Position numbers and translations under genes: made by a program. A stretch of DNA of 48,435 bases, taken from assembly GCA_017881505.1 (NCBI GenBank), contig JADGQW010000001.1, positions 1-48,435 of the forward strand, read 5' to 3'. Source of the DNA: Gemmatimonadales bacterium. GTDB taxonomy: Bacteria > Gemmatimonadota > Gemmatimonadetes > Gemmatimonadales > JACORV01. A model generated the notes under the pieces. That model had not been told where the DNA came from and made no database searches. It saw only the letters and a list, made by a program, of their open reading frames with translations. Shown in pieces: positions 568 through 39,149 of this stretch (position 1 is its first letter; every line of letters starts with the position of its first letter).

Positions 568-2391
568 TCAGTGCAAGGGTCGGTACGGCGTCGGGGGCCC
601 CGCGATGAGGACCCGTATCATCCCGAGGTCGGCCCGTGCCGCGGGATCCCTGGGGGCGCGGGCCGCCGCGGAGTCGAGCGCGCCGCGGGCGGAATCCGGC
701 ATCCCGACGGCGATGAACGTCGAGGAGCGGTAGAGCCAGCCGAGGAACGGGTCGCCACCGTGCGTCAGGAACGCCGGCCAGACGGCGCGCGCGCTGTCGG
801 GGCTGCCGAGCGCCAGGAACGCCCCGGCGAGGATCCGCGCCGCCGACGCGTCCCGCGGAGCGGACGCCGCGCGCCGCCGCGCCTCGTCGAGGAAGGCGCC
901 GCGAGACTCCGCGTGCAGCTCGACGTACGCCCGCCCCCACTCGGTCAGGGGCTTCGCCCAGCCGGGCCGCTCCGCGTCGGCGAGGAACCGCCGCGCGAGC
1001 CGGACGTCGCCCGCGTCCGCCGCCGCCTTCGCCGCCTCGATGAGATTCGGCACCTCGAGCGGGTAGAGCTCCGCCGACACGCCGTACTCGGCGAGCGCCG
1101 CCCGGCGACGGCCGAGTCGCTCGAGCACCCGCGCGGCCGCCTGGTGCACCCGATAGGACTCCGGGTGCGCGAGGAGGTCGCGCAGCACGAGGTCGCGGTT
1201 GCTCCGCCACACAGGGATGGCCGCGGTCGTCTTCGCGCCGAAGACGGCCGACACCACGAGCACCACCGCCACCGCCCGCGCGACGCCCACCCGGAGGGAC
1301 AGGGCACGCAGGCCCTCGGCGGCCACGAGGGCGATCCCCGCGGACGCGAGATAGAGCGTCCGCTCGGCGACGACCACGCCGGTGGGGAAGAGGAGGTTCG
1401 CCGTGGGGAGCCACGCGAGCCCCGCCAGGAGAAGGCCGGCCGAGACTGCGCGGTTCCTCCGCCACAGGGCGAACGCGAGGAGGACGAACGCCACGAGGAC
1501 GACGGCGCCGGCCGCGCCCTCAAGCGTGAAGTGCTCGAGCCGCTCGATCACCCGCGGGTGGTAGTCGGGGGAGAGGTCGAACGGCCACACCATGAGCCGC
1601 AGCAGGACAAAGACGGCGGGCAGCATCGTCGCGAGCCGGCCCGCCGTGCCAAGGCCGAAGAAGGTGGGCGCCACCGAGGCGAAGGAGATGTCCCCCTCCA
1701 CCGCGCGCCGCGCGATGAACCACGCGGCGGTGAGCACGGCCGTCGCCGCGTACGTCCGCCACGGGAGCCCCGGATCCCCTTTGGTGCGCGTGGCGAGGTC
1801 GTCGAGCGCCAGGAGGGCGACCGCGACCGCCGCGTGCTCCTTCGAGAGGAGGGCGAGCGCCACCGCGACGAGGAGGGCCCCTTCGAGCGCGAGGGCGGAC
1901 CTGCCCGCGGCGCGCCGGCGGCGCACCGCGCGGGCCAGGAGGAGCGCCGCGAACAGAAAGGCCGCGGCCATCGCCTCCGCGCGCCCCACGAGGTTGGCGA
2001 CCGCCTCCACGTGCACCGGGTGGACCGCGAACAGCACTCCGCCCGCGAGCGCCGCGCCGGGGCCCACGTACACGGCGAGCACGGGGACGAGGAGCGCCGT
2101 GGCCGCCGCGTGCCAGGCGACGTTCACCGCGTGGAGCCACGTCGCGCTCCCGCCCGAGAGCTGCCAGTCCACGGCGAACGAGAGGACGACGAGGGGCCGG
2201 TAGAGACCGGCGCCGTGCTCGGGCGGCCAGTACGGCTGGTCGAAGGCGGCGAGCGCGCCGGCGACGGTGTGGGCCGCGGGGTTCCGCTCGACGATCATCT
2301 CGTCGTCGAGCGCGAAGCGGTTGCCGAGGGACGGCAGGTAGACGACGGCGGCAACGGCCGCGGCGACGAGGGCCCCCCGCCGGACGGTCAT
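568..2391 (-). CDS. TMTC/PMT-like GT-C membrane glycosyltransferase (DUF1736-type core) with C-terminal TPR-like domain, paralog 1
   Basis: Start taken at ATG 2391 (MTVRRGALVAAAV...), not the track start 2508. N-terminal TM followed by loop-1 acidic motif FALDDEMIVERNP, then YRPLVVLSFAVDW and FAVHPVHVEAVANLVGRAE (DUF1736-like). About 10 TM segments, then an about 200-aa helical repeat tail. ATG overlaps the upstream stop by 1 nt (TGATG). Confidence 0.8.
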   Translation of the reverse strand: MTVRRGALVAAAVAAVVYLPSLGNRFALDDEMIVERNPAAHTVAGALAAFDQPYWPPEHGAGLYRPLVVLSFAVDWQLSGGSATWLHAVNVAWHAAATALLVPVLAVYVGPGAALAGGVLFAVHPVHVEAVANLVGRAEAMAAAFLFAALLLARAVRRRRAAGRSALALEGALLVAVALALLSKEHAAVAVALLALDDLATRTKGDPGLPWRTYAATAVLTAAWFIARRAVEGDISFASVAPTFFGLGTAGRLATMLPAVFVLLRLMVWPFDLSPDYHPRVIERLEHFTLEGAAGAVVLVAFVLLAFALWRRNRAVSAGLLLAGLAWLPTANLLFPTGVVVAERTLYLASAGIALVAAEGLRALSLRVGVARAVAVVLVVSAVFGAKTTAAIPVWRSNRDLVLRDLLAHPESYRVHQAAARVLERLGRRRAALAEYGVSAELYPLEVPNLIEAAKAAADAGDVRLARRFLADAERPGWAKPLTEWGRAYVELHAESRGAFLDEARRRAASAPRDASAARILAGAFLALGSPDSARAVWPAFLTHGGDPFLGWLYRSSTFIAVGMPDSARGALDSAAARAPRDPAARADLGMIRVLIAGPPTPYRPLH

Positions 2392-4217
2392 CACCGGGAC
2401 GGCCGGCACTGTGCGAGATCGTCGAGACGGCGGCGCACCTCGGCGCGCGCCCCTTCGGTGCGGATCAGCACGAGGGCCTTTCCGAGCCGGGTTCTGGCTT
2501 CGGCGCACAGCCCAAGCCGGCGCGCCGCGTCGGCCGCGACGAGCTGGAGTCCCGAGCTCTCCGGATGGAAGAAGACGCTGCGCCGCGCGGCTGCGAGGAC
2601 GCGCTGGGGCTCGCCGCGGCGGTCGAACACCGAGGCGGCGGCGTAGACGAGGACCTCGTTGGCCGGGTCGCGGCGGAGCGCGAGGCGCGCGAGCGCCTCC
2701 GCCGAGTCGAGGGCGCCGGCGCGGAATCGCGCCAGGACCGCCTGGGACGCGGCGCCGGAATTGAGGGTGTCCACCGCGTACGCCGCGCTGGAGAACCGGT
2801 CAGCGAGACCGAGGGCACCGGCCGAGAGGTAGTGGAACCCGATCTCCTCGAGGAGCGAGCCGTCCTCGGGGCGGATCCGCGCGGCGGTGAGGAGTTCGCG
2901 CTCACCGGTGACGGCGTCGCCGCGGTCGAACGCCCGCGCCCCGAGGTTCCAGTGGGTCCGGTACGACCGGGGGGCGTCGGCCACGCGCGCGGCGAGGAAG
3001 CGCGCGGGCGTGCTCCAGACGGGGATGCGCGCGAGGGTGCGTGCCGCGAGAAGCGTGAGCAGGAGGGCGGTCGCCGGCCACACGAGCCGATGCCGCGGCA
3101 GCAGTTCCCAGAGCGCGCCGAAGGCGATCGCCACGCCCACCGACGGCAGGTAGAGGAGACGCTCCCCCAGCACTACGCCGGTCGGGAAGGGCACGTTCGA
3201 CGCCACCGAGCCCGCCACCACGAACCACACCACCCCTGCGGTGAACCCTGGCGCGGTGCGCCGCAGACGCCAGGCCGCCACCACGATCGCCGCCACGAGG
3301 ACCGCACCCGCCACGTGCGCGGCATCGAACGCCGTCGAGGGCACGAACTGGTCGGGGGCGTAGTCCGCGGAGAGGCGCAGGGGGAAGGCGAGGAGCCGCC
3401 CCCACTGGAGGTACGCCGGAAGCATGATCGCGAGCCGGGAAGCCCACGTTGTGCCCGCGAGCCCGGCTGCCGAAACGCCGGCGCCGAAGGTGGTGCCGAG
3501 CATAGCGCCGCGCGCCGCCAGGTAGCCCGCCGCCAGCGCGACGACGCCGCACCAGAGGAGCGCGTGCCCCCGGAGCACGGCGCGGAACGCGCGGCCCGAC
3601 GTCCGCGCCGTCCACGCGTCCGCCAGGAGGAGCATCGCCGGGAGGGTGAGGGCGTGCTCCTTCGCGGCGAAGGCCGTCGCCGCTCCCGCCAGCACGACGA
3701 GCGCGAAGAGCGCGCGCCGGGCGCCGCGCGGGGCCTCCGCCGCCGCCCGGGACTCGGCGGCGTACGCGAGCAGCGCGGCGAGGTAGCCCAGCGCCGCGAG
3801 CACCTCCGAGCGGCCGACCACCGGCGCGAACGCCTCCACGTGGACCGGGTGTACGGCGAACCAAAGCGCGGCGACGATGGCGCCCGGGCCGAGGAGCGCG
3901 CTGGCGAGGAGGAGGACGAGGGCCGTCACCCCCAGATGCAGCGCGACGTTCACGGCGTGGAAGACGGCGGGCGATCCGCGCCCCACGGCCCAGTCCACCG
4001 CGAACGAGGCGGTCGTCAGCGGGCGGTAGATCCGGTCGGGGATGTCCCCCGCCCAGTAGGGGCTGGTGACGAGGACGGGCAGATTGCGGAGCGCACGGAG
4101 GCGCGCGTCGTCCTGCACGACGGGCTCGTCGTCGTAAACGAATCCCCCGCGCACTGCGGTGACCGAGGCGGCGAGCGCCACCGCGAGCACCACGGCGTAC
4201 GCTTTAGCGGATGGCAC
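2391..4217 (-). CDS. TMTC/PMT-like GT-C membrane glycosyltransferase with C-terminal TPR-like domain, paralog 2
   Basis: 608 aa. Motifs FVYDDEPVVQDD, YRPLTTASFAVDW and FAVHPVHVEAFAPVVGRSE align with paralog 1. Multi-TM core plus TPR-like tail. GTG start at 4217; start uncertain by a few codons. Confidence 0.8.
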   Translation of the reverse strand: MPSAKAYAVVLAVALAASVTAVRGGFVYDDEPVVQDDARLRALRNLPVLVTSPYWAGDIPDRIYRPLTTASFAVDWAVGRGSPAVFHAVNVALHLGVTALVLLLASALLGPGAIVAALWFAVHPVHVEAFAPVVGRSEVLAALGYLAALLAYAAESRAAAEAPRGARRALFALVVLAGAATAFAAKEHALTLPAMLLLADAWTARTSGRAFRAVLRGHALLWCGVVALAAGYLAARGAMLGTTFGAGVSAAGLAGTTWASRLAIMLPAYLQWGRLLAFPLRLSADYAPDQFVPSTAFDAAHVAGAVLVAAIVVAAWRLRRTAPGFTAGVVWFVVAGSVASNVPFPTGVVLGERLLYLPSVGVAIAFGALWELLPRHRLVWPATALLLTLLAARTLARIPVWSTPARFLAARVADAPRSYRTHWNLGARAFDRGDAVTGERELLTAARIRPEDGSLLEEIGFHYLSAGALGLADRFSSAAYAVDTLNSGAASQAVLARFRAGALDSAEALARLALRRDPANEVLVYAAASVFDRRGEPQRVLAAARRSVFFHPESSGLQLVAADAARRLGLCAEARTRLGKALVLIRTEGARAEVRRRLDDLAQCRPSR

Positions 4218-6304
4218 GCTGGAAGGTATCTTTGGCCATGCCTACCAGCCAGCCGTCCGGCGGCCGCCCGAGCGCGGCCCGCGTCGTGGTCGTCGCGCTC
4301 CTCGCCGCGCTCGCGTTCCTGCCGATCGCCAATTGGATCCCCGGCGGCCACGACACCGACTGGTACGACACCGCCCGCCAGCTCTGGACCCTGGGCAGCC
4401 TCATCGTCGCGGGACTCGCGGTCATCCTCGCCATGTCGGCGGAACGGTACGGCGGGCTCGCCGAGCCGCTCTGGCGACGGCTCGCGGCGCTGCCCCGGCC
4501 CTCCGGACGCGTCGCGGCAGCGGTCCTGGTCCTCGCCGCCTTCGGCGTGTATGCGCTGGTCGCGACGGACGTCTTCAGCCGCCGACCGCTCCTCATCGAC
4601 GAGGTGATCCAGCTCTTCCAGGCGCGGATCTTCGAGCAGGGGCGACTCTGGCTCGCGTCCCCCGGGCACCCGGAGCTGTTCGGCTCGATGCACCTCGTGG
4701 ACCAGGGGGGGCGGATCTACGGGCAGTTCCCGGCGGGAGGCCCCGCCGTGCTCGCGCTCGGCGACGCGCTGGGAGCGGCGTGGCTGGTGGGCCCCGCGTG
4801 CGGCGCCATCGCCGTGGCGGCCTTCATCGTCTTCCTCCGCACCACGGAGCCGGGCCGGGCCACCCGGTGGGCCGCGGCGGCGCTGTTCGCGCTCGCGCCG
4901 TTCACGGTCTTCCAGGCCGGCTCGCACATGAACCACGGCTTCACCCTCGCGGCGCTGCTCGTGGCCACGGCGGCCCTCTCCCGGGTGGTGACCAGCGACA
5001 CTCCGCGGCCCTGGCTCGCCCTCGTCTCCGGCCTCGGCTACGGCATCGCCGCCACCATCCGGCCGACGGACGCGCTCGCCTTCGCCCTGCCGGCGGGGGT
5101 CTGGTACCTCGCGCGGGCGGTGCGCGACCGGCGGCGCCTCAGCGACCTGCTCGCCTCCGGGGTCGGCGTCGCCCTGCCGATGGCCGCGCTCCTCTGGGTG
5201 AACGGCCACACGACCGGCGATCCGTTCCTGTTCGGCTACCAGGTGCTGTGGGGGAAGGAGCACAACCTCGGCTTCCATCGCGCGCCGTGGGGGCCGGTGC
5301 ACACGCCGCTCCGGGGCCTCGAGCTGGTCAACGTCTACTTCCTGCGCCTGCAGCGGTACCTCTTCGAATCGCCGGTGCCTTCCCTGGTGCCGGTGCTCGC
5401 CGCCCTGGCGCTCGCACCCGCGTTCGGCCCGTTCGACCGGCTCCTCCTGACCAGCGCCGGCCTTCTCGTCGGGCTCTACTTCGCCTACTGGCACAACGGC
5501 TTCTTCCTGGGCCCGCGCTTCCTCTACCCGCTCATGCCGGTGCTCGCACTCTGGACGGCGCGGCTCCCCGGCGTCGTGAAGGCGCGTTTCGGGCGCGGCT
5601 TCGCGTGGCGGTTCGTGCTCGCGGCGTTCGCCGTGACTGCCGTGATGGCACTCGCGTTCCAGGTGCCCGACCGCGCCCGGCAGTACCGGAGCGGCCTCTT
5701 CACCATGCGGTGGAACGCGGACAGCACCGCCGCCGCCGACGGGATCCGCGGCGCGCTGGTGCTGGTGCGGGAGAGCTGGGGGAGCCAGGTCATCGCGCGG
5801 ATGTGGGGGCTGGGCCTGACACGCTCGGAGGCGGAGTGGCTGTACCGAAGCGTGGACGTGTGCCAGCTGGACTGGGGAGTCACGCAGGCCGAGCAGCGTG
5901 GCCTGAAGGGGCCCGCCGCGGTCGCGGTCCTGAGACCGCTCACGGCGGACTCGATCCGCGTGGTCGCGACCCCCTTCTCGGCGGACGTCTCCGAGCGCTA
6001 CCTGCCGGGGACCCGGTATGCCGCGCCGTGCGCGGCGAAGGTGCGGGAGGACCGGGAGGGATTCACCCTCTACACGCCGCTCATCCTGTCGCGCTTCGGT
6101 GGGAACGTCTACGTGCGGGACCTGCACGCGCAGGACACCGTGGCGCTGGCGATGTACCCGGGCCGGCCCATCTACCTGGTGCGCCCCTCGGGAGCGGCGG
6201 AGCGCTCCACGCCCCGCTTCTATCCCGTGACCCGCGACTCGCTGGCGCAGGCGTGGGGTGTACCGGTGGCTCGCCTGGGGGCGGCGCCGGCCCCGTCACC
6301 GTGA
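4211..6304 (+). CDS. GT-C fold membrane glycosyltransferase (ArnT/PMT_2-like) with about 230-aa C-terminal extracytoplasmic domain
   Basis: 697-aa ORF with many TM helices. Loop-1 acidic motif LLIDEVIQLFQARIF. High GC3. An alternative start ATG 4238 (MPTSQP...) has GGAAGG upstream and is perhaps more likely. Confidence 0.7.
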   Translation: MARWKVSLAMPTSQPSGGRPSAARVVVVALLAALAFLPIANWIPGGHDTDWYDTARQLWTLGSLIVAGLAVILAMSAERYGGLAEPLWRRLAALPRPSGRVAAAVLVLAAFGVYALVATDVFSRRPLLIDEVIQLFQARIFEQGRLWLASPGHPELFGSMHLVDQGGRIYGQFPAGGPAVLALGDALGAAWLVGPACGAIAVAAFIVFLRTTEPGRATRWAAAALFALAPFTVFQAGSHMNHGFTLAALLVATAALSRVVTSDTPRPWLALVSGLGYGIAATIRPTDALAFALPAGVWYLARAVRDRRRLSDLLASGVGVALPMAALLWVNGHTTGDPFLFGYQVLWGKEHNLGFHRAPWGPVHTPLRGLELVNVYFLRLQRYLFESPVPSLVPVLAALALAPAFGPFDRLLLTSAGLLVGLYFAYWHNGFFLGPRFLYPLMPVLALWTARLPGVVKARFGRGFAWRFVLAAFAVTAVMALAFQVPDRARQYRSGLFTMRWNADSTAAADGIRGALVLVRESWGSQVIARMWGLGLTRSEAEWLYRSVDVCQLDWGVTQAEQRGLKGPAAVAVLRPLTADSIRVVATPFSADVSERYLPGTRYAAPCAAKVREDREGFTLYTPLILSRFGGNVYVRDLHAQDTVALAMYPGRPIYLVRPSGAAERSTPRFYPVTRDSLAQAWGVPVARLGAAPAPSP

Positions 6305-7852
6305 CGGCGGCGGCGCGGGCGGGGGCGGCGGGTGGTGGTCCACCTCGAACGCCGCCATCGGTCCGGGCCACATCATCAGCGGCGTGAGGTAGCCGGGCAC
6401 GAGCTGGCGGAGCGCCTCGACGACCGGCGCCGCGTCGGAGCGGGGGCCCGTGACGATGACGTAATCCACGGCGGAACGGTCGAGGAAGGCGCGGAGCGAG
6501 TCCGGGCCGAACCCCACGTCGCGCCGACCCTCGAGGCGCCACAGGTAGGTGGGCACCGCCCGGCGCCCCGAGTAGAGCCAGAGCAGCGCTTCGTCCTCGC
6601 CCGCCAGCACCGCCGTCGTCGGCGTCGTCCGCTGCACCCACGGCAGGATCGTCTCGAACGTCTCCGAGATCCCGCGCTGCGCGGCGGTCGGCCAGTGCCC
6701 GCGGAATCCGGTGACCTGGTACCGCCCGAAGCCGACGAGCACGGGGACGATGCCCGCCACCGCCAGCGCGCGGAGCCCCCAGCGCCACGCGTCCGTGCGG
6801 GCTCCGCCGGCCCGCCACACCGCGACGCCCCCCATCGCCAGCGCGACGACGAGCACCGGCATCAGCGCCCAGAGGAACCGGTCCGGCGCGTACGGCCAGA
6901 GCAGCACCACCGCGACGTAGAGCACGAGCGACCAGCCGAGGGCCGGGGCGCGGCGCGTCAGGGTGACGGCGCCGACCACGAGCACCGCGAGCGCGGGCAC
7001 GCCGAACCAGGGGTGCCACGCGGGGCGCACCGCGGCGAAGGCCAGGTACCCGAGGGGACGGAGCACGTCCCGGAGGATGTCGGGACCGATCCACCGCCAT
7101 CCCGCCTGGCGCAGCAGGTCCCCATAGGTCCCGTAGTTCGCGGCGAGGACGGCGGGGACCTCCGCGCGGTGCACCGCGGTCCAGACCTGCCACGGGACGA
7201 GGAAGAGGAGCGCCGCGCCCGCCGCGGAGAGCGCCTCCCGGCGCCGGCGCGCGAGGAGGAGGGAGAGAAAGACGCCCCCGGCGATCGCGACGCCGATGGA
7301 ACGCGTCAGGCCCGCGAGGCCCGCGACCGCGCCCGCGCCCGCCGCGAGCGCGAGCGCCCGGCGGCCGGTCGCCTGCACGGCGCCCTCAGCGAGCCACCAC
7401 GCGCCCAGCGCGATCACGAGGAAGAGCGGCTCGGCGAAGAGCACCGTGACCACCGAGAGGAGCGGCACCGCCGTCGCGCCGACCAGGACGAGGATGGCCG
7501 CCGCCGGGGCCGGCAGCGCGCGGCGTCGCGCGAGATACGCAGTGAAGCCCCCCGCGAAGGCGCCGAGGAGCAGCGCGTTCGCCGCGCGGAACAGCACGAC
7601 GTTGTCGGGGAAGGAGGGCCACAGCCGCCAGAGGACCGCGAGGAAGGCGGGATAGAGGGGCGGGTAGTGGACGGCGGCGGGCGTACCCGGGAGGTAGAGG
7701 AGCCGGTAGCCGTGCCCCTCCGCCAGGCTCCGCGCCAGCGCGGTGTAGATGCCGTCGTCGTAGAACACTCCGACCAGCGCGTGCGGCATCAGCGCCGCCG
7801 CCACCGCCGTGGCGACAAGCCCCGTCGCCACCGCCCAGCCCCGCCGTCGCAT
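6296..7852 (-). CDS. GT-C fold membrane glycosyltransferase (ArnT/PMT_2-like)
   Basis: Start taken at ATG 7852 (MRRRGWAVATGLVA...), which overlaps the GT2 stop by 1 nt (TGATG). Loop-1 motif GVFYDDGIYTALARSLAEGHGY is typical of the ArnT/PMT_2 class. About 11 TM segments plus a C-terminal soluble domain. Its 3' end overlaps the convergent gene by 9 nt. Confidence 0.7.
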   Translation of the reverse strand: MRRRGWAVATGLVATAVAAALMPHALVGVFYDDGIYTALARSLAEGHGYRLLYLPGTPAAVHYPPLYPAFLAVLWRLWPSFPDNVVLFRAANALLLGAFAGGFTAYLARRRALPAPAAAILVLVGATAVPLLSVVTVLFAEPLFLVIALGAWWLAEGAVQATGRRALALAAGAGAVAGLAGLTRSIGVAIAGGVFLSLLLARRRREALSAAGAALLFLVPWQVWTAVHRAEVPAVLAANYGTYGDLLRQAGWRWIGPDILRDVLRPLGYLAFAAVRPAWHPWFGVPALAVLVVGAVTLTRRAPALGWSLVLYVAVVLLWPYAPDRFLWALMPVLVVALAMGGVAVWRAGGARTDAWRWGLRALAVAGIVPVLVGFGRYQVTGFRGHWPTAAQRGISETFETILPWVQRTTPTTAVLAGEDEALLWLYSGRRAVPTYLWRLEGRRDVGFGPDSLRAFLDRSAVDYVIVTGPRSDAAPVVEALRQLVPGYLTPLMMWPGPMAAFEVDHHPPPPPAPPPSR

Positions 7853-8580
7853 CAGCGGTGCGGCGGGAAGAGGTTGAACCGCACGATGTGCCACAGTGCG
7901 GCCACCCCGTCACGCCAGTTGATCTTCTTCCCCTCGGCGTAGGTGCGGCCGGCGTACGAGATGGGGAGCTCGTAGATCCGCGCCCGGGCGCGGGCGAGCT
8001 GCGCGGTCAGCTCCGGTTCGAAGCCGAAGCGGTCGGTGGTGAGCACGAGCCGCCGCATCAGGTCCGAGCGGACCATCTTGTAGCAGGTCTCCATGTCCGT
8101 CAGGTTCAGGTCCGTCAGCATGTTCGAGAGGAGCGTCAGGAAGCGGTTCCCCACCGAATGCCAGAAGAACAGGACCCGGTGCGGGCCGCCGAGGAAGCGG
8201 GAGCCGTACACGGCATCCGCGCGGCCGTCGGCGATCGGGGCGAAGAGCAGCGGCAGGTCCGCGGGGTCGTACTCGAGGTCCGCGTCCTGCACGACCATCA
8301 CGTCCCCCGTCGCGGCGGCGATCGCGCTGCGGATCGCGGCGCCCTTGCCGCGATTCACCGGATGGTGGATCACCCGGTGCACCTTCCCCTGCGCGGCGAG
8401 CGCGTCGAGCAGGCGGCCGGTGTCGTCCGAGGAACCGTCGTCCACGGCGATCACTTCCAGCGTCAGGGGGACCGCGGCGAGACGCTCGAACACCCGCGCC
8501 ACCGTCGCGCCCTCGTTGTAGGCGGGCACCAGCACCGAGACGACGGAGCGCGCCGGGTCCCGCAGGACGGGGGCGCTCAC
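7852..8580 (-). CDS. GT2 family glycosyltransferase, polyprenyl-phosphate hexose synthase-like (DPM1/Ppm1/ArnC/GtrB class)
   Basis: 242 aa starting at GTG 8580 (GTGA overlap with the pilR stop). Motifs VLVPAYNEG, AVDDGSSDDT, NRGKGAA, VQDADLEYDP (DxD) and YGSRF. No C-terminal TM helices. Confidence 0.85.
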   Translation of the reverse strand: MSAPVLRDPARSVVSVLVPAYNEGATVARVFERLAAVPLTLEVIAVDDGSSDDTGRLLDALAAQGKVHRVIHHPVNRGKGAAIRSAIAAATGDVMVVQDADLEYDPADLPLLFAPIADGRADAVYGSRFLGGPHRVLFFWHSVGNRFLTLLSNMLTDLNLTDMETCYKMVRSDLMRRLVLTTDRFGFEPELTAQLARARARIYELPISYAGRTYAEGKKINWRDGVAALWHIVRFNLFPPHR

Positions 8581-17591: not shown

Positions 17592-18488
17592 TCAGCGCAC
17601 GAGGGCGAGCACGACCTTCCCGACGTTGGCGAGGGAGGTCGCCGAGAGCTTGTCGGGGGTGTCGGCGGTGGTGTGCCAGTAGGTGTAGTCGAAGTCGATC
17701 ACGTCGGCGGTGTGGATCCCGGCGCCGAGGAGGGGGATGTGGTCGTCGGTCAGGGCGATCCCCTGCACCGGCTTGAAGACGTGGCCGAGGCCGATGTCCT
17801 CGGCGGTCTGCCACACCCGCTGCACGACCTCGGGGGCGCGCTCGAGCGAGTAGCCCTCCTGGGGGAACGCCTGGTCCTTGTCGCCCACCATGTCGAGGAG
17901 GACGGCGTAGAGAGGCCGGTACCCGGTGGGGAGGTGCGCCGCGAAGTAGCGCGAGCCGAGGAGATTGTCGGGCGCGTCGCCCTCGAACGTCCCGTAGTCC
18001 TCGCCGTCGACGAAGAGGAGGTCCACACCCAGGGCAGGGGGCGTGCGCTTCAGCTGATCGGCCACCCCGAGGAGGACGGCGACGCCCGAGGCACCGTCGT
18101 CCGCGCCGGGGACGGGCAGCGTCCGCTTGGCGGGGTCCGGGTCCTGGTCGGCGTGCGGCTTGGAGTCCCAGTGCGCCAGGAAGAGGACCCGGTCCCGCTC
18201 TCCGGGCCGGAAGCGCGCGATGAAGTTCCGGAGGGGGAGGGTGTCGCCCGACGCGGTGACGTGCGTGAAGGACTGGACCTCGACGCTGTCGGCCCGCTGG
18301 CGCAACTGCGCGAGGAGCCAGTCGCCGACGGCCCGGTGCGGCGCCGTGCCGGGGATGCGGGGGCCCGCGGCGACCTGGTACTCGACCCAGCGGAGCGCCT
18401 GGGGGCCGTCGAAGGGCGGCGCCGCCTGGCTGCTCCCCCGGCACGCGACGGCGAGGGCGAGGAACGCGAGGGCCACGGAGCGCATCAT
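17592..18488 (-). CDS. Lipoprotein, M28-fold metalloenzyme; glutaminyl-peptide cyclotransferase-like (Bacteroidetes PgQC type)
   Basis: 298 aa from ATG 18488 (ATGA overlap with the sprA stop). Lipobox LALAVAC. Motifs FLAHWDSKPHADQDPDP, PGADDGASGVAVLLGVA, LLFVDGEDYG and DFDYTYWHTTADT match M28/QC metal-ligand blocks. QC versus aminopeptidase cannot be decided by eye. Confidence 0.6.
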   Translation of the reverse strand: MMRSVALAFLALAVACRGSSQAAPPFDGPQALRWVEYQVAAGPRIPGTAPHRAVGDWLLAQLRQRADSVEVQSFTHVTASGDTLPLRNFIARFRPGERDRVLFLAHWDSKPHADQDPDPAKRTLPVPGADDGASGVAVLLGVADQLKRTPPALGVDLLFVDGEDYGTFEGDAPDNLLGSRYFAAHLPTGYRPLYAVLLDMVGDKDQAFPQEGYSLERAPEVVQRVWQTAEDIGLGHVFKPVQGIALTDDHIPLLGAGIHTADVIDFDYTYWHTTADTPDKLSATSLANVGKVVLALVR

Positions 18489-21400
18489 CGGGATCCCCCG
18501 GCGGAGAAGTTCACCGTCACCGACGCCGTGAACACGAACTGGGAGAACTTCCGGTTCGCGTGCGCGTCCTCCGTCACAATGTAGCTGATGCCGAGGCCGG
18601 CGGACACGTTGGGCGGCATGTCGGTGTCCATGGTGAGGTTCATCTGCCGCCGGCGGGAATCCGAGATCGACACGCAGGTGCTGTCGCCCGCCCGCGCGAT
18701 GCAGCCGGTGCTGACGCTGTTCGAGTACCGCAGCGAGGTCCGCACGTCGGAGCGCAGGGGGATCAGCTCCGGCGGCACGCGGAAGGAGAAGGAGAGGTCG
18801 GCCCCGACGTCGTTGCGGTCGCTCTGGACCACGTTCCCCGACTGGTCGGACGCGGACCGCATGTCGGAATAGCTGAAGGTCGTGATCACGCGCGGCGCCC
18901 AGTTGAGGGTCAGCGAGAGGGGCCACGACCGGGTGCTCTGCGAGGTGGTGACATCCCCCGTCGCCGACGAACCGCCGGGCAGGCCGGCGAGCAGGGCCGA
19001 CTGGACCGTCTGCGTCGCCCGCTCGCGGTACGAGGCGCTCGCGCTCACGCTGGTGAGGACCGCCCGCACCAGCGGCTGGCGGGGCGACCAGACCCAGCGC
19101 CCGGTGACGCTGGGCCAGTCGATCTCCGTCTGGCGCATCTGCGACTGCCCGTCGGCGCGGCGCGCCCAGGAGGTGCTTTCCTGGCGCAGGTAGTCCGAGG
19201 CCAGGGAGAGCCCCAGCGGCAGCCGCAGGCCCCCTGCCAGCCGGACCTCATGATCCTGCCGCGCCGCATCCGCGGGCTGGCCGCCATACGCGCGGAAGGC
19301 GTCCACCCCGCCGAGCGCGAGCTGATAGCCGAGGCCGGGCGTCACGCCGCGCTGGCTGAACTGGGAGCGCAGGCCCGAGCGGGTCGAGACGTCCACCGGA
19401 TTGAGCCGGTCGAAGAGCTTCGTCAGCAGCGACGAGTCCCTGGACAGCCCGCGCGCGAGGGCCGTGAGGTCGAGGGCAAGGCCGAGGTCCGTCGTCCGCT
19501 GGTTCTGGAAGGCCAGCGGGATGGTGAAGGCGCCCGCCGTGTCGCCGTCGACCCGCTGGGCGGACGGGGCGGTGGCGTCGCGATTGAGGTTGAACTGCGA
19601 GGCGAGGCTCGCGCGGGGCCGGAGCCAGTTCGCGAGCGCGGGTTGCCAGGTGAGGCGGGTCGCGACCACGCGCGAGCGCTCGAAGCCGACGTTCATCCCG
19701 AGGAGGCGACGGGAGTCCTGCCGGGTCAGCACCCCGATGGTGGTCGAGTCCCCGTAGTTCCGCAGGTCCCGCACCTGCGTCCAGGTGAACCCGCCGGAGA
19801 GGGAACGGAGCGGCCGCAGGTCCACTGAGACGTCCTGCTGCAGCGCGGCCTGCACCATCGACACCGACGTGGCCAGGGTGTCGCTCGAGGTGGCGACCGG
19901 CACCCGGAAGGTCTGCTGCTCCGCCGCAGTATGGTTGTACGTCGTGCTGAAGCGCACCGAGACCGGCGTCCAGGTGAGCCGCGCGTCCTCCAGGCCGCGC
20001 GCGAACGACGATCCACTGATGAACGCCGGGAGCGCCCGCACCAGCCGCACCAGGAAACCGGGCACGTACCGGAAGCTGCGCTCGGCGGGGGTCGCGGCGT
20101 AGTCGCCGCGCAGGTTGAGGAGGCTCGAGGTCCCCTGCCCCAGCTGCGTCGTGGTCGCGCTCCGCGCCCCCGACACGCTCACCGTCAGGTTGTCCACCAG
20201 CAGGCGCTGCCACCACAGGGCGCCGCGCCGCGTGCGGCGCAGGACCAGGCTGACGTTCGTCTGGGAGCTCCTGGGGCGCCGCAGCCCGTCGATCGGCCCC
20301 GCGAGCACGTCGGTGCCGCTCAGGAAGTACGGATCCTGGGACGAGCGGTCCACGCGGACGGTGAGGGGCGCGGTGAGCCCCAGGCGCTCGAGGCCGAGCT
20401 TCTCGAGCCGCACCGTCGTCGCGACGGCGAGCTGCGTCGTGCCCAGGTAGGGCGGCTGCTCGCCGATCTGGCGGAACTGCGCGTCCCGCCGGGTCATCGA
20501 GATGTTCACGTCCGCGACGTCCGACGCGGAGACGTGGAGGCTGAGGGTCCCGGCGTAGCCCGGCGTGTTCACCGCCTGCGCCAGGCGGATGTCGTCCACC
20601 CACAGCTCGGCGCTGTCGAGCGCGGGGCCACTGTCCCGGACGAAGCCCACCGCCAGCTCGCGGACCGCCGCGAGGTTGGGCGGCGAGACGCCGGGGTTCC
20701 GCACCTGCACGAGGTAGGGGCCGTCGCACGCCACGTACGCGAGAGTGTCGGCGCCGCAGCTCCTGGCGCGCGCCACGTTGGGCGGGTCGCCGCGGAGGAA
20801 GGACGCCTCGATCTGCGCCCGCAGGTCGAGCCAGTGGCCGAAGTCCACGACCGCCTCCGGGTCCCACGTCGTCGTGCGGGCGGGCGCCCGGAAGAGGTAG
20901 AAGTTGTTCTCGTCCTGCGCGACCTTGATGTAGAACGCCAGCTGGCCGCGGTCCCACCCGGCGCCGCGGCCCCGCGCCCAGACGCGCAGCTGGCGGTAGC
21001 CGAGGAAGTTCCGCGCCCCCTCCGGGAACTGGAAGAACGACTCGGCACGCTCGCCCGGCCGGACGTCGAAGCCGATGAGGCGCAGCGAGCGCTCGTTGAT
21101 CTGCACCTGGCCGACCGAGAGATTGCCGGTCGTGCTCTCGCCCGCGTCAGTGACGCCGGGGGGCGGCACGTAGCCGAGGTCGGCCTGGTTCTCCGTGCTC
21201 ACGACGCTCGCGACCACCTCGCCGTGCGCGCTGCCGGCCGCGCCGTCGAGGCCCGGGATGGGCGTCGCCGCCCGCTTCACCCAAGGGGCGCCCACGAGCT
21301 TGACGCGCGCCAGGGCGAAGTACACCGCGTGCTCGGGGGTGCCGCCGCCCGGCACCACGAGGGTCATCCGCAACTGCTGGATCAGCCGGATGTTCGGCGC

Positions 21401-24400
21401 CCCCACCTGGATCGTGTCGCTCCGGAAGGGGATCCGGTACAGCCGCCACCGCCCGGCCGCGGCCGAGTCGGTGCCGGCGACGGTCGCGCCGTCGCGGACG
21501 TAGTAGCGGTCGTCCCCGATGGGGAAGACGTACCGGAAGTACGACTCCCCGGTCGCGGTGATGAGGGTGTCGAGGTGCCCGTCCCCGTTCAGGTCGTCGC
21601 TGTCCACCTGGCCATTGTGCCGCGTGCAGTGCTCGCCGAGGTCGCCCCAGGGATAGACCACCAGCCCCCGGCTCATCCGCGACTCGCACAGCGGGACGGC
21701 GTGTTCCATGACGCCGGTGGTCGTGTTGAGGATGCTGTCCGCGACGTCGCCGAGGATGCCGTTATCATTGACCGACGCGTTCCACGCCCCGGTGAGGGTG
21801 TCGCGCTCGGTCTGCAGCCTCCCCTCGTGGGCGCGGCGGCGGCCGCTGAAGACCGTGTCCCCCTGCGCCGTGACCGCGAGCCGGTTGGGGAGGAAGTCCA
21901 CGGCGTCCTCGTACACCGTACCGAAGTCGAACGCGAGCGTCGCGCCGGCCGCGCGCGCGGTGCGCTGGTTGTCCTCGTACACCCACAGCTCGAGGTACTC
22001 GACGCGGGAGAGGTCCACGCCCGTCGCCGACAGCGGCTGGGTGATCGAGCGCCAGCGCGGGCCGTCGGTGTGCGGTACGTACCAGCGGATCCGGCCCGTG
22101 TTCGCGTCGGGCAGTCCGCCGACCGTGTCGGTGTACATCAGGTCCCAGAGCACCGGCTCGTACGTCGTCCCCGCCCCCTGCACCACGATGGACGGGTCGA
22201 TCTCGTTGGGGCGGAACTGCACGATGCCGGTGGACGTCTGGATGAGGTTCTGCCAGGTGAACGGGACGGCGTCCTGGTCCTGGAACCCGAGAACCGGGTC
22301 GATGCCGTGGGCTTCGAGCCCCCGCGCCGAGCCGGGCCGGCTGCCGTACTCCCAGAGGTTCTCGCCGAGGGAGAGGAAGGTGCCGCCCTCCTCCTCGAAC
22401 GTCTCCACGTATGCGACGCCGAGCTGGTTCGGCGAAGGGCGGGAGGTCGCCAGCTCGGCGTCGAGGGTGACCGCCGAGGGGGCGTCGGTGCGGACGAAGG
22501 GCAGCGCCTGGACCAGCCGGGTGAGCCCGTCGGGCGCGAAGCGGAAATTGCCGGTGATCCCGCCGACGAAGTGCGACGAGGGCTCGAACCCGAGTGGCGG
22601 CCGGGTGAAGGTCGTGCGCTGGCGCTGCAGCAGGCCGAGCGCGGTCAAGCTGCCGTGTTCGCCGAAGTCGTAGCGCGTCTCGAGCCCGTAGATGGAGGTC
22701 GGCGCGATGGCGAAGGTCGGCTGCTCCTCGTACTGGACGCTGACGCTCGTCGGGCCCTGGAAGAGGGAGTCGGGCGCCGTGAAGGTGACCTGCCCGACCT
22801 CGTAGTTGATCGTGTAGTCCACGTTGCGCGTCAGCGGCCGGCCGGCCGCCGTGATGACCTCGCTCCCCTCGCGGATCTGGAAGCCCCCGAGCGAGAGCAC
22901 GGCGCGGTTGTCGCCCCCCTGCGCGTCGTAGTGGAACTGCAGCGTATAGAGGGGCGTCGGGCCCTGCGTCCGCAGGAGGTAGGTCGGCGTCCGGTACAGC
23001 GAGTCGTTGCGGAACTCCGCCGGGAGCGCGGTGCTGTCGGCGAACGGCTGGAGCTTCGGGAAGACGATATAGTAGTCCTTGATGGGCGCGCCGGAGCCGG
23101 GGTCGCGGCTCCGCGGGAACACCCGGTTGAACTGGTCGAGCGTCGTCGCGTCGGTCTGCAGTGCGAGCCCGAGCTGGGCCAGGAAGGTCGCGGCGCCGGT
23201 GGCCGGCCGCTCCGATTCGCCGACCAGGATCCGCAGCCGCGCGGTCTCCCGCACCACGTCCCCCTGCGCGCCGAGCCGGTAGAAGTTCCGCATCTCGTAG
23301 CGGAAGGTGGGGACGTCGGCGTCGCGCCGCGGCTCGTAGATGAGCCGCAGCGTATCCACCCGCCCCGCCGCCGCCTTGGCGGGGAAGGTCCCGACGGTGT
23401 CGCCGGACGCGGTCACGTAGGAGACGGCGAGGTAGTCGTCCTGGTCGAGGCGCGCGGCGAGGCCGATCCACAGGCCCGAGGCGTCCAGGAAGTAGTCCCG
23501 CCCCTCGATGAGGAGCTCCCAGGGGAACGGTCCGGCGCGCTGCGGGGAGTCGTTCCGCAACGCGACGGCGCTGATGCCGCTCAGGTTCTGCTCGGCGGTC
23601 CCCGCGGTGTTCAGGCGGCTGCGCCGGCGGTACACCCGCACCTGGGTGACCTGCCCCGACGCGGGGAGGACGGCCTGCGTCAGCCCCAGCACGTCCACGC
23701 CGGGGTACCCCGGAATGGTCCGGGGGTCCACCACGAAGAAGAAGCGCAGCGGCTCGAAGTCGCGGTCGGCCACGGCGCGGTCGAGGGGCTGGACGGTCCG
23801 ATCGCCGATGGTGAAGGTGCGGCCCCGGACGACGTTGCCCTTCTGCTGCGCGAAGATGCCGGTGAAGTCGAGCGCGCCGACCTGGCCCTGCACCTGGACG
23901 CCGAAGTTGTTCGAGGGGATGCCCGCGGTGATGAAGCGCGACGGGGGCACGGCGAAGGTCACGTTCCCGAGGTCCACCCGCCGCAGGACCTCGTCCTCCA
24001 GGCCCTGGTAGTAGACCTGGATGTTGTTGGACGCCTCGAACTCGCGCTTGCTGTCGTAGTCCACGTTGAGGTGCACCCGCTGGCCGACGACGCCTCCCGA
24101 GCGCACATTGAACTGCGGGTCGAAGCTCGGCGGGTTGAGCTGGTTGCGGCAGCCGGAGCCGAGGTCGTTGGCCTCCGCCGGTGTGCAGCGCAGGTTCTTC
24201 ATCTGGTCGAACCGGAGCTCGAAGCGCGCCGACATCAGCAGGTCGAGGTCGGCGATGCGGCTGATGACCTGGGGCTGCGGCGGCGCCTCGGAAGGCATGG
24301 GCGAGGGGCCCTGCGGCGGCGCGGCGGGCGCGGCGGCCGGGACGGACGCCAGGCTCCGGTCGCCGCCCAGGAGCAACCCGCGCCACATCGCCGCGTCGCG

Positions 24401-24634
24401 CCGGGCGAGTCGCGCGCGCAGATCCGCTGCCCAGTCCCGCGCCACGGTCGCCGCGTCGGGACGCCGCGCCGCGAGGCGCCCCCCGGGGGCGATGTCGGCG
24501 GGGAGCACCAGGCGCAGCGGGTCCCGCCGCAGCCGCAGGCGGCGCACGCCCGCGAGCGTGTCGGGTTGCTGCGCGGCGAGGCGGGGAGCGGAGAGGAGGG
24601 CGAGGAGCGCGAGCGCGAGGAGCGATCGCGCCAC
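18485..24634 (-). CDS. sprA: SprA/Sov-family T9SS outer-membrane translocon
   Basis: 2049 aa with signal peptide ...SAPRLAA|QQ. The N-terminal block HLNVDYDSKREFEASNNIQVYYQGLEDEVLRRVDLGNVTFAVP...FGVQVQGQVGALDFTGIFAQQKGN matches the conserved SprA_N signature as I recall it. Giant beta-rich protein. GTG start. Confidence 0.85.
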   Translation of the reverse strand: MARSLLALALLALLSAPRLAAQQPDTLAGVRRLRLRRDPLRLVLPADIAPGGRLAARRPDAATVARDWAADLRARLARRDAAMWRGLLLGGDRSLASVPAAAPAAPPQGPSPMPSEAPPQPQVISRIADLDLLMSARFELRFDQMKNLRCTPAEANDLGSGCRNQLNPPSFDPQFNVRSGGVVGQRVHLNVDYDSKREFEASNNIQVYYQGLEDEVLRRVDLGNVTFAVPPSRFITAGIPSNNFGVQVQGQVGALDFTGIFAQQKGNVVRGRTFTIGDRTVQPLDRAVADRDFEPLRFFFVVDPRTIPGYPGVDVLGLTQAVLPASGQVTQVRVYRRRSRLNTAGTAEQNLSGISAVALRNDSPQRAGPFPWELLIEGRDYFLDASGLWIGLAARLDQDDYLAVSYVTASGDTVGTFPAKAAAGRVDTLRLIYEPRRDADVPTFRYEMRNFYRLGAQGDVVRETARLRILVGESERPATGAATFLAQLGLALQTDATTLDQFNRVFPRSRDPGSGAPIKDYYIVFPKLQPFADSTALPAEFRNDSLYRTPTYLLRTQGPTPLYTLQFHYDAQGGDNRAVLSLGGFQIREGSEVITAAGRPLTRNVDYTINYEVGQVTFTAPDSLFQGPTSVSVQYEEQPTFAIAPTSIYGLETRYDFGEHGSLTALGLLQRQRTTFTRPPLGFEPSSHFVGGITGNFRFAPDGLTRLVQALPFVRTDAPSAVTLDAELATSRPSPNQLGVAYVETFEEEGGTFLSLGENLWEYGSRPGSARGLEAHGIDPVLGFQDQDAVPFTWQNLIQTSTGIVQFRPNEIDPSIVVQGAGTTYEPVLWDLMYTDTVGGLPDANTGRIRWYVPHTDGPRWRSITQPLSATGVDLSRVEYLELWVYEDNQRTARAAGATLAFDFGTVYEDAVDFLPNRLAVTAQGDTVFSGRRRAHEGRLQTERDTLTGAWNASVNDNGILGDVADSILNTTTGVMEHAVPLCESRMSRGLVVYPWGDLGEHCTRHNGQVDSDDLNGDGHLDTLITATGESYFRYVFPIGDDRYYVRDGATVAGTDSAAAGRWRLYRIPFRSDTIQVGAPNIRLIQQLRMTLVVPGGGTPEHAVYFALARVKLVGAPWVKRAATPIPGLDGAAGSAHGEVVASVVSTENQADLGYVPPPGVTDAGESTTGNLSVGQVQINERSLRLIGFDVRPGERAESFFQFPEGARNFLGYRQLRVWARGRGAGWDRGQLAFYIKVAQDENNFYLFRAPARTTTWDPEAVVDFGHWLDLRAQIEASFLRGDPPNVARARSCGADTLAYVACDGPYLVQVRNPGVSPPNLAAVRELAVGFVRDSGPALDSAELWVDDIRLAQAVNTPGYAGTLSLHVSASDVADVNISMTRRDAQFRQIGEQPPYLGTTQLAVATTVRLEKLGLERLGLTAPLTVRVDRSSQDPYFLSGTDVLAGPIDGLRRPRSSQTNVSLVLRRTRRGALWWQRLLVDNLTVSVSGARSATTTQLGQGTSSLLNLRGDYAATPAERSFRYVPGFLVRLVRALPAFISGSSFARGLEDARLTWTPVSVRFSTTYNHTAAEQQTFRVPVATSSDTLATSVSMVQAALQQDVSVDLRPLRSLSGGFTWTQVRDLRNYGDSTTIGVLTRQDSRRLLGMNVGFERSRVVATRLTWQPALANWLRPRASLASQFNLNRDATAPSAQRVDGDTAGAFTIPLAFQNQRTTDLGLALDLTALARGLSRDSSLLTKLFDRLNPVDVSTRSGLRSQFSQRGVTPGLGYQLALGGVDAFRAYGGQPADAARQDHEVRLAGGLRLPLGLSLASDYLRQESTSWARRADGQSQMRQTEIDWPSVTGRWVWSPRQPLVRAVLTSVSASASYRERATQTVQSALLAGLPGGSSATGDVTTSQSTRSWPLSLTLNWAPRVITTFSYSDMRSASDQSGNVVQSDRNDVGADLSFSFRVPPELIPLRSDVRTSLRYSNSVSTGCIARAGDSTCVSISDSRRRQMNLTMDTDMPPNVSAGLGISYIVTEDAHANRKFSQFVFTASVTVNFSAGGSR

Positions 24635-24661
24635 CTTCGTCCCCGACGCGGGTAAGACTGG

Positions 24662-24675
24662 AAACGTATACGTTT
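24662..24675. promoter_or_regulatory. Perfect 14-bp palindrome (candidate operator) in the sprA/lptF divergent region
   Basis: AAACGTATACGTTT starts 5 nt downstream of the predicted sprA -10, so it overlaps the expected transcription start. It is AT-rich in a GC-rich genome. Confidence 0.5.
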
Positions 24676-24679
24676 GGCG

Positions 24680-24708
24680 AATATACGAGCGCCCCAGAGG
24701 CCTCTCAA
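24680..24708 (-). promoter_or_regulatory. Sigma-70-type promoter for sprA
   Basis: Minus strand reads TTGAGA-N17-TATATT, about 45 nt upstream of the sprA GTG. Confidence 0.5.
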
Positions 24709-24734
24709 CCCCGAGGGAACGGCCGGAACCGTCC

Positions 24735-30762: not shown

Positions 30763-30939
30763 AGACCGACTCCTGCGCTTTGCGGGTACGGATATAGTGC
30801 GTTCCGGTCCAGCGGCGACACGACGCCGGTCCGGCCGCGGGGGGATTTGCCGCCCGGAAATATACGATTCGCGCGGGCCCAAGGCGACGCCGCGAGGATG
30901 GGGGATTCAACGCATGCTCGACATCGGCGTCACGATCCG

Positions 30940-32590: not shown

Positions 32591-32600
32591 TCTCATGAGA
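32591..32600. promoter_or_regulatory. Second palindrome sharing the same half-site
   Basis: TCTCATGAGA, which is the TCTCAT/ATGAGA half-site with zero spacing, 20 nt downstream of the 19-bp palindrome. Confidence 0.4.
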
Positions 32601-32661
32601 CCCGGCCTCTCCCGGGTGCACCCCTGGTCCCGCACAACCGAGCGCGGCACGGAGGATCGGT

Positions 32662-35803: not shown

Positions 35804-35818
35804 CGGCGGAGGCCCGTG

Positions 35819-36097
35819 ATGGACGCTGCTGACCACAAGCACCCGAACTACGTCGCCGTCTGGGGCGGCCTCTTCGTCCTGACGGTGATCGAGGTGGCCG
35901 CCGTCTACATGCGGATCCCCCGCCACCTCCTGGTCCTCGCCCTGCTGCTCCTGGCGGCGTGGAAGGCGCTCCTGGTGGCGCTCTACTTCATGCACCTCCG
36001 GTTCGAGCCGAAGCGCCTCGCGCTGGTGGCGCTGGCGCCGCTCCCCCTCGGGATCATTCTCGTCGTGGCCGTGCTCCAGGAGTTCGCCAAGCGATGA
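35819..36097 (+). CDS. ctaF: Prokaryotic cytochrome c oxidase subunit IV family protein
   Basis: 92 aa from ATG 35819 (GGAGG 6 nt upstream). Three TM segments and the LVALYFMHL motif. Confidence 0.8.
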   Translation: MDAADHKHPNYVAVWGGLFVLTVIEVAAVYMRIPRHLLVLALLLLAAWKALLVALYFMHLRFEPKRLALVALAPLPLGIILVVAVLQEFAKR

Positions 36098-38131: not shown

Positions 38132-38141
38132 GGGCGTCGCG

Positions 38142-38564: not shown

Positions 38565-38581
38565 CCCCGCTCGCGCCCGCC

Positions 38582-39128: not shown

Positions 39129-39149
39129 CGCTCCCGCAGCGCGCCCCGC

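Follow-up and report, generated by a model that had tools for sequence, protein, structure and literature searches.

Five predicted glycosylation genes lie between pilR and pilA

The 48,435-nucleotide stretch analysed here, referred to as the window, comprises positions 1 to 48,435 of contig JADGQW010000001.1 from a Gemmatimonadales bacterium (assembly GCA_017881505.1) and carries a pilus gene cluster in which a block of candidate glycosyltransferase genes occupies the interval between pilR and pilA. As the GC content of the window is ~72%, raw lists of open reading frames (ORFs) are full of artefacts, and frames and strands were therefore fixed by the GC content of codon positions, the third position (GC3) reaching 0.92–0.98 in the real genes. 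Using these frames and their translations we found that positions 568–8580 hold exactly five genes flanked by pilR and pilA, the same coordinates at which a first-pass annotation of this DNA had placed five glycosylation genes. Counted from the pilA side, they are g1 (2391–568, minus strand; 607 amino acids), directly upstream of pilA; g2 (4217–2391, minus strand; 608 amino acids); g3 (4238–6304, plus strand; 688 amino acids); g4 (7852–6296, minus strand; 518 amino acids); and g5 (8580–7852, minus strand; 242 amino acids), a GT2 glycosyltransferase. The pilA gene (368–3, minus strand), encoding the major type IVa pilin, runs off the contig end. On the other side of the block lie pilR (9944–8577, minus strand), a sigma-54-dependent response regulator gene with a GTG start at 9944 (Response_reg, Sigma54_activat and HTH_8 domains), and pilS (11692–9941, minus strand), which encodes a PAS histidine kinase (Pfam PAS_4, HisKA and HATPase_c).

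The pilS/pilR, pilR/g5, g5/g4 and g2/g1 junctions are all overlaps of 1–4 nucleotides. The stop codon of pilS overlaps the start of pilR, the pilR stop and g5 start overlap in the sequence GTGA, the g5 stop and g4 start overlap in TGATG, and the g2 stop overlaps the start of g1. g3 lies on the opposite strand to the other four genes, convergent with g4 (9-nucleotide overlap) and divergent from g2 (20-bp gap), and the same inverted arrangement occurs in two related loci, L091 and L092. It is placed head-to-head and tail-to-tail within an otherwise co-directional gene string (4211–4240 and 6296–6304), so that read-through from pilS-pilR-g5-g4 into g2-g1 would be antisense to the entire g3 gene, and the g2 and g3 promoters must sit within each other's coding regions.

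g1 and g2 have a TMTC-like architecture and active-site motifs

g1 and g2 are paralogs (36% identity across 460 amino acids, E = 3e-33). The AlphaFold2 (AF2) model of g1, with a predicted local distance difference test (pLDDT) score of 91.3, has ~11 transmembrane helices and, at residues 398–597 behind them, seven hairpins of TPR-like form; a profile of the g1 family matched only TPR proteins in the PDB, strongly and over positions ~400–590. The TPR domain of both proteins would lie on the extracytoplasmic side. The animal TMTC1–4 proteins (TMTC_DUF1736) likewise have 11 transmembrane helices and a lumenal or periplasmic TPR domain.

Seven motifs, M1 to M7, characterise TMTC proteins: DD, SHKSYRP, RxD, KE(T/Q)xxT, DW, PxxP and ERxxY (PMC7801869). 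We scored them on a sample of the g1/g2 family consisting of 56 homologs at 50% clustering. Five of the seven (M1, M3, M4, M5 and M7) are carried by g1 and g2, and M2 is present in part. M1 corresponds to D29-D30, conserved in 56/56 and 55/56 of the homologs, respectively. M3 takes the form GR-x-E, in which E139 is found in 51/56 and is D in the other five. M4 corresponds to K184-E185 and M7 to E343-R344-..-Y347, both in 56/56, and M5 to D276-Y277, with D in 49/56, Y in 52/56 and W in four. For M2, only the YRP core is recognisable (R65 and P66 in 56/56), 'SHK' being absent. The 'LLFAVHPIHT'-type segment of TMTC proteins has a counterpart in FAVHPVHVE, of the form FAVHPxHxE, in which F, H and E are invariant. 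M6 was not found as PxxP in g1 or g2; the conserved prolines of g1 are spaced differently, and g2 lacks the first.

TMTC_DUF1736 is significant in 14 of the 56 relatives (E ≤ 0.01; best 2e-13) and PMT_2 in six. The first-pass annotation had described two of the enzymes as TMTC-like and had spoken of PMT-like transferases in general. The TMTC likeness is supported by the architecture, by the motifs M1, M3, M4, M5 and M7 with YRP, and by the DUF1736 matches of relatives, not by the Pfam threshold, as neither DUF1736 nor PMT_2 is significant on g1, g2 or g4 themselves. For DUF1736 (PF08409, cutoff 27 bits), g1 scores 12.1 bits (E = 0.2) and g2 gives no match. The PMT likeness did not hold: Pfam scans of g1 and g2 gave no PMT family match and no MIR domain, and they are therefore not members of PMT/GT39. 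We also considered g1 and g2 as non-enzymatic, PilF-like TPR assembly factors and rejected this idea, since both proteins retain the invariant GT-C residues for catalysis and donor binding.

g5 is a predicted donor synthase, and g4 and g3 are candidate GT-C enzymes

g5 matches Glycos_transf_2 (PF00535) with E = 6e-35 and a score of 121 bits (cutoff 23.3). The PDB sequences that it matches best are the Pyrococcus dolichyl-phosphate-mannose synthase (DPMS, 5mlz; 7e-15), ArnC (~1e-13) and GtrB. These matches span residues 13–221, except for that to GtrB, which covers residues 12–128 only. The best NCBIfam matches were AglJ, PpgS (polyprenyl-phospho-GalNAc synthase), ArnC and a dolichyl-phosphate-hexose transferase, all below their equivalog cutoffs. 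Since the likeness to polyprenyl-phosphate-sugar synthases is full-length and no hydrophobic segment is present, g5 is predicted to be a member of this class in a form without transmembrane helices, which bears out the earlier description of a soluble GT2 of this type.

The four membrane proteins all carry an acidic loop-1 motif (LDDE, YDDE, IDE and YDD), and these motifs, pointed out in the first-pass annotation, are conserved or invariant in family alignments. The annotation had also called all four proteins GT-C enzymes. For g4, which has no Pfam match, the model-based evidence points clearly to this fold. Its AF2 model, built from an alignment of 51 homologs (pLDDT 91.5), retrieved GT-C enzymes as all of the top 33 Foldseek matches in the PDB, including STT3 (7e-7), ArnT (5ezm; 1.7e-5, TM-score 0.52), ALG9, AftA, PglB, AftD, PimE, EmbA/B/C and Pmt. 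D32 and D33 of its YDD motif are invariant in the 51 homologs, one of which has a PMT match, and a small alpha/beta domain lies at the periplasmic C-terminus. On the strength of this model, g4 is shown as a GT-C-fold glycosyltransferase. g3 is a polytopic membrane protein that falls just below the DUF2142 cutoff (28.7 against 30.1 bits) and weakly matches the NCBIfam LA_3751/LA_3752 putative glycosyltransferase (E = 3e-6). Among its relatives, DUF2142 is found in 12/41 and PMT in 4/41, and the motif 'LLIDE' is invariant in the family alignment. g3 is thus only probably a GT-C protein, of DUF2142/PMT-like type. Single-sequence PDB searches with g1, g3 and g4 gave nothing useful. Comparisons among the g1 transmembrane-domain, g3 and g4 families with hhalign were non-significant (probabilities of 14%, 3% and 1%), and the four membrane glycosyltransferase genes can therefore not be linked to one another by sequence, except g1 to g2.

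Most of the block travels with pilus genes

A genome scan with a g1 peptide pattern gave three loci; the wider survey was a metagenome scan with the family motif FA[VL]HP[VL]H[VT]E, which returned 80 loci whose neighbouring genes were identified by BLAST against the window proteins. In ~39 of the 80 metagenome loci, pilA and/or pilR adjoins the GT-C/TPR gene. pilA lies within 2 kb downstream in 19 of the 44 loci that have at least 900 bp of downstream flank, and among the 18 loci with both flanks, eight have pilR and pilA and eight have neither. The best-conserved component of the island is the GT2 gene directly after pilR, which is 62–78% identical in ~25 metagenome loci, while the GT-C/TPR genes are only 30–45% identical and occur in one to five copies. 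The conserved block, found in metagenomes and in genomes of Gemmatimonadales and Longimicrobiales, reads pilS-pilR-GT2-(g4)-(one to five g1/g2-type genes)-pilA. The island travels with the pilus genes as far as the GT2 gene, g4 and above all the g1/g2-type genes are concerned; g3 does not. The gene-neighbourhood test suggested in the first-pass annotation came out in its favour, the GT2 and g1/g2-type genes accompanying pilSR and pilA in many Gemmatimonadota loci. Our literature search found no description of a locus of this type in the phylum.

A g1/g2-type gene stands next to pilA in L001, L003, L008, L009, L010, L011, L012 and others, in the first five directly upstream of it, and orthologs of g2 occupy the same position in L001, L008, L011, L091 and L092. 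Homologs of g4 are found in the pilR-linked islands of L004, L005 and L092 and of many metagenome loci. The window gene order is repeated in L091 and L092, where the g3 orthologs are 70–78% identical; L092 has the order pilR-GT2-g4-...-pilA, and L091 lacks g4. These two loci extend past the point at which our contig ends, with pilA, a HAMP histidine kinase gene, a second sigma-54 regulator gene, minor pilin genes and pilM. A g3-type gene also recurs near the pil clusters of L037, L038 and L070. In L001, L003 and L008, which have pilSR downstream, a GT2-PMT_2-g3-like-g2-g1 block ends directly at two to three copies of pilA, whose products are 63–72% identical to the window pilin. L010, from a Longimicrobiales metagenome-assembled genome, has four tandem g1/g2-type genes directly upstream of a pilA that is 53% identical to that of the window; before them come genes for a PMT_2 GT-C protein, a methyltransferase, a GT2 and an amidotransferase resembling AsnB. 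When the transmembrane domains were placed in a neighbour-joining tree, all 18 pil-linked sequences fell into one clade, while none of the 13 sampled members that branch deepest is pil-linked.

The first-pass annotation had described the island as inserted between pilR and pilA. This wording is misleading, as the block is a conserved feature of the lineage, reaches a larger size in some relatives and has no break in composition. A recent horizontal insertion was rejected on the grounds of this conservation and uniform composition.

The larger islands are seen in L004 and L005, from more distant Gemmatimonadales, in which pilB-pilT-pilC-...-pilS-pilR is followed by an island that runs off before pilA is reached. 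It holds a g5-like GT2 gene (244 amino acids; L005 only), g4, two more GT2 genes and genes for Wzx, a DegT aminotransferase, a methyltransferase and an acetyltransferase, followed by a GT2 gene, a PMT_2-type GT-C gene and a g3-like gene. Within 11581–18080 of L004 and 11503–18170 of L005, the acetyltransferase is of the hexapeptide type and one of the extra GT2 proteins has a GT2_TM_C domain. This content amounts to a toolkit for an amino-sugar oligosaccharide linked to undecaprenyl pyrophosphate (Und-PP), yet no Wzy_C oligosaccharyltransferase is visible.

Islands of this composition, with a Wzx flippase, an aminotransferase, an acetyltransferase and several GT2/GT4 genes between pilR and pilA, would be expected if the pilin were glycosylated en bloc by an oligosaccharyltransferase of the PglL/PilO/TfpO type from an Und-PP-oligosaccharide, with the island building only the glycan. 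Such an enzyme would carry a Wzy_C domain, and Pfam scans found none in the island proteins or the other window proteins scanned, nor did an O-antigen-ligase-type protein appear there or in the related-locus gene tables that were read. The island of the window has neither Wzx nor an initiating phosphoglycosyltransferase, and the donors of GT-C enzymes with DD motifs are lipid-monophosphate sugars. We therefore regard en bloc transfer as very improbable.

pilA follows a sigma-54-type promoter-like element

The window pilA starts with GTG and its product has the N-terminus MRNSKG/FTLIELL..., with ~3 C-terminal residues lost at the contig end. It matches N_methyl (PF07963, E = 9e-11), its best NCBIfam match is the Myxococcus-type PilA, and it is 63–72% identical to the L001 pilins (125–127 amino acids). 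Ser and Thr make up 24% of the globular part, against 12% in the neighbouring proteins; the mean for 38 related pilins is 23%. This content is compatible with a glycosylated pilin and is not specific to one.

We read a sigma-54-type −24/−12 promoter-like element, TGGCAT-N5-TTGC, from the sequence at 441–455 on the minus strand, 73 nucleotides upstream of the pilA GTG and followed by a good Shine-Dalgarno sequence. Of 52 related pilin starts, 11 have such an element at the same distance, 84–102 nucleotides ahead of the Gly-1 codon, compared with 0.26% of background windows.

In relatives, two to three tandem major-pilin paralogs, 50–90% identical to each other, follow the GT-C/TPR genes, as in L001 (12010–13341), L012 (1848–3176) and likewise L014, L022, L038, L049 and L053; the window ends inside the first pilA. 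Relatives also have a second two-component pair after pilA and before the minor pilin genes and pilMNO, made up of a histidine kinase with a HAMP domain and a sigma-54 response regulator that is 42–45% identical to PilR (L001 13421–15960, L091 3203–5667 and L092 250–2699). This second pair makes the locus of these relatives one with two PilSR-like systems.

A proposed pathway for O-glycosylation of PilA

Taking these data together, we propose that the island mediates periplasmic O-glycosylation of PilA, as its main acceptor, from a polyprenyl-phosphate-sugar donor, a reading that we regard as reasonably probable. What the sequence data show are gene identities, folds and motifs, the coupling of genes in operons and the conserved synteny. 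PilA as the acceptor is inferred from gene linkage; which sugar is donated, how it is flipped, its O-linkage to Ser/Thr and the way in which the enzymes share the work are likewise part of the proposal. The scheme is modelled on the logic of GtrB/Gtr*, ArnC/ArnT, Ppm1/PMT and TfpW. g5, co-translated with pilS-pilR, would take a monosaccharide from a nucleotide sugar and attach it to polyprenyl phosphate at the cytoplasmic face of the membrane, and the lipid-phosphate sugar would be flipped by a flippase encoded outside the island. As the hosts are bacteria, the carrier would be undecaprenyl or decaprenyl phosphate, not dolichyl phosphate as for the TMTC proteins. g1 and g2 would then pass the sugar, on the inner membrane's outer face, to Ser/Thr residues of PilA, using the loop-1 DD and the phosphate/metal-binding motifs KE and ERxxY, with the periplasmic TPR domain recognising the protein acceptor. 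g4, translationally coupled to the GT2 gene, may extend the glycan or add a sugar at other sites, and g3 would probably be a GT-C protein that merely resides in the locus and whose target is another or a wider one. pilA would be transcribed separately from a PilR/sigma-54-type promoter.

Several observations weigh against this proposal. Gene adjacency is no proof of the acceptor, Ser/Thr richness is widespread in pilins generally, and no flippase gene was found in the island or among the window proteins scanned. Foldseek did not confirm a GT-C fold for g1, because the TPR domain dominated, all 50 matches listed for the full-length model being TPR proteins; a profile of the g1 transmembrane domain had no match among PDB sequences. 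The wider GT-C/TPR family comprises 38,576 cluster representatives at E<1e-3, mostly not pil-linked, and sequences that are not pil-linked are nested in the pil clade (L081, L052 and the subclade L047/L055/L058/L043). Homologs of g3 that are 50–57% identical lie away from pil genes, beside gidA/parAB in L006 and, far from pil genes, beside a methyltransferase and a GT2 gene in L007. Since the nearest non-local homologs of g3 are found in such settings, the earlier notion of four GT-C enzymes dedicated to the pilin is overstated.

The last of these observations would fit an island that modifies another envelope target, such as lipopolysaccharide or lipooligosaccharide, exopolysaccharide, or membrane or secreted proteins other than PilA (minor pilins among them), and that is co-regulated with the pil cluster or hitch-hiking in it. 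On this explanation, the independent travel of g3 homologs and the mostly unlinked wider family would be expected, as would the coupling of the GT2 gene and g4 to pilSR, not to pilA, and the Wzx, DegT, acetyltransferase, methyltransferase and GT2/GT4 genes in the interval of relatives, which are typical of polysaccharide loci. A nested paralog among housekeeping genes points the same way: the g2-like GT-C/TPR gene of L055 (7995–9569) lies among HisRS, ProRS, GMP synthase, PTS EIIA and Dus genes and, given these neighbours, looks like a housekeeping paralog. The L055-type subclade may represent a general protein glycosyltransferase, either derived from the pilin-linked ones or ancestral to them. 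Against another target, a g1/g2-type gene lies directly upstream of pilA in two orders, even where pilSR is elsewhere (L001, L003 and L010), the pil-linked copies form one clade, and the characterised GT-C/TPR enzymes use protein acceptors (proteins generally for TMTC, pilin for TfpW). We consider a different envelope target rather unlikely, and favour PilA as the main acceptor.

The varying number of g1/g2-type copies (one to five) and the accessory glycan genes suggest diversification of a surface glycan, as for a phage receptor. More tentatively, and with somewhat less than even confidence, we extend the proposal to a lineage-wide, multi-enzyme pilin O-glycosylation system of Gemmatimonadota, in which TMTC-type GT-C/TPR enzymes would be served by a donor GT2 coupled to PilS-PilR, and tandem expansion of the transferases and swapping of accessory genes would diversify the glycan, plausibly in an arms race with phages specific to pili. 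The variable content of the pilR-pilA interval is likely a hotspot of surface-glycan diversity relevant to phage-host interactions in soil.

Relation to known glycosylation systems

To our knowledge, the enzymes known to glycosylate pilins are PilO/TfpO, PglL and TfpW, of which TfpW is the sole GT-C example, with a mechanism that is still unclear. TfpW, from group IV Pseudomonas aeruginosa (Pa5196/PA7), is a 646-amino-acid protein with 11 predicted transmembrane helices, an essential DDx in periplasmic loop 1 plus, at the C-terminus, a large TPR domain in the periplasm. ArnT is its best structural template, its gene adjoins pilA, and it acts as an arabinosyltransferase that glycosylates pilin from a polyprenyl-monophosphate sugar. 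The claim of the first-pass annotation that a system of this type would be new undervalued TfpW, which is also a GT-C protein with a loop-1 DDx and a periplasmic TPR domain, encoded beside pilA and using a polyprenyl-phosphate-monosaccharide donor. Overall, the observation made in that annotation was confirmed and its interpretation partly supported. TfpW (AAM52060.1) is the closest functional precedent for the island, and g1 and g2, compared with it by description, are architecturally the same kind of enzyme.

These resemblances raise the possibility of true orthology to TfpW, with g1 and g2 adding oligomers of D-arabinofuranose (D-Araf), or of another pentofuranose, from decaprenyl-phosphate-pentofuranose. 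The sizes are similar (607/608 and 646 amino acids), and the 11 transmembrane helices with a periplasmic TPR domain, the loop-1 DDx and the adjacency to pilA are shared. However, the motif YX6PFX7P of periplasmic loop 4 was absent from g1–g4 in a regular-expression search, g1 and g2 carry TMTC-type motifs, and they lie upstream of pilA, not downstream, as one to five tandem paralogs in a different phylum. The island also has a DPM1/ArnC-type GT2 instead of a D-Araf pathway, together with the extra GT-C genes g4 and g3, and the window proteins scanned include no polyprenyl-phosphoribose synthase dependent on phosphoribosyl pyrophosphate and no DprE1/E2. The D-Araf donor genes are unlinked in P. 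aeruginosa too, so their absence from one contig is weak evidence. We regard orthology to TfpW as improbable; by motifs, g1 and g2 appear closer to the animal TMTC proteins, from which the proposed pathway would differ in its presumed acceptor, a pilin in place of cadherin. A tblastn search of a plasmid collection with g1 gave no match.

The pairing of a GT2 polyprenyl-phosphate-sugar synthase with an extracytoplasmic GT-C enzyme is shared with three-component systems such as GtrA/GtrB/Gtr*, ArnC/ArnT, PpgS/Rv3779 and GacI/GacL, and translational coupling like that of the GT2 gene and g4 is often seen in such pairs. The island differs in having no GtrA/SMR/MATE flippase gene, and g5 lacks the C-terminal transmembrane helices of GtrB and ArnC; known three-component systems modify polysaccharide or lipid A, not pilin. 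Actinobacterial Ppm1 and PMT (GT39) also combine a polyprenyl-phosphate-sugar synthase with a GT-C protein O-glycosyltransferase, which acts on Ser/Thr of exported proteins. In contrast to PMT, g1, g2 and g4 have no PF02366 match and no MIR domains, TPR taking the place of MIR, and the actinobacterial system is general and Sec-coupled while the island is specific to its locus. What sets the island apart is the combination of TMTC-type motifs, a donor synthase of its own that is coupled to pilSR, several GT-C partners, and a conserved position between pilR and pilA at which the gene content varies.

If PilA is indeed the acceptor, g1 and g2 would represent a second GT-C/TPR lineage tied to pilA, with TMTC-type active-site motifs and its own donor synthase, widespread in a poorly studied soil phylum, and pilin glycosylation from lipid-monophosphate sugars would not be a Pseudomonas oddity. 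The pilin would then be the first concrete and testable substrate for the large, uncharacterised bacterial TMTC-like family, and the animal TMTC O-mannosyltransferases could gain a tractable model system in bacteria.

Neighbouring genes of the window

Upstream of pilS, the genes pilC (13808–12609, minus strand; 399 amino acids), pilT (14995–13832, minus strand; 387 amino acids) and pilB (16724–15000, minus strand; 574 amino acids) mark the locus as a type IVa pilus cluster. Their order is kept in L004, L005, L091 and L092, where the T2SSF and T2SSE Pfam domains are found. Between pilC and pilS, at ~12504–11737 on the minus strand, lies an ORF resembling an outer-membrane protein (OMP), with a signal peptide, a beta-barrel-like sequence and a weak match to a YaiO-type OMP (E = 0.05); no gene occupies this position in the classical Myxococcus/Geobacter order.

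Further from the island, LptF/G is encoded at 24066–26297, a large CarboxypepD_reg/OMP barrel protein at 27481–30882, and a respiratory/copper cluster at 32595–41537, comprising a COX1-containing ORF, CtaA/COX15 and a P-type Cu-ATPase with an HMA domain. All of these look like ordinary housekeeping content without glycan genes. Just upstream of the pil cluster lies a gene for a 2049-amino-acid SprA_N-domain protein (18485–24634, minus strand) that resembles a type IX secretion translocon. In L004 and L091, SprA and pilB are separated by genes for an M28 peptidase and a ComEA-like HHH protein, and the order SprA-M28-HHH-pilB is conserved.

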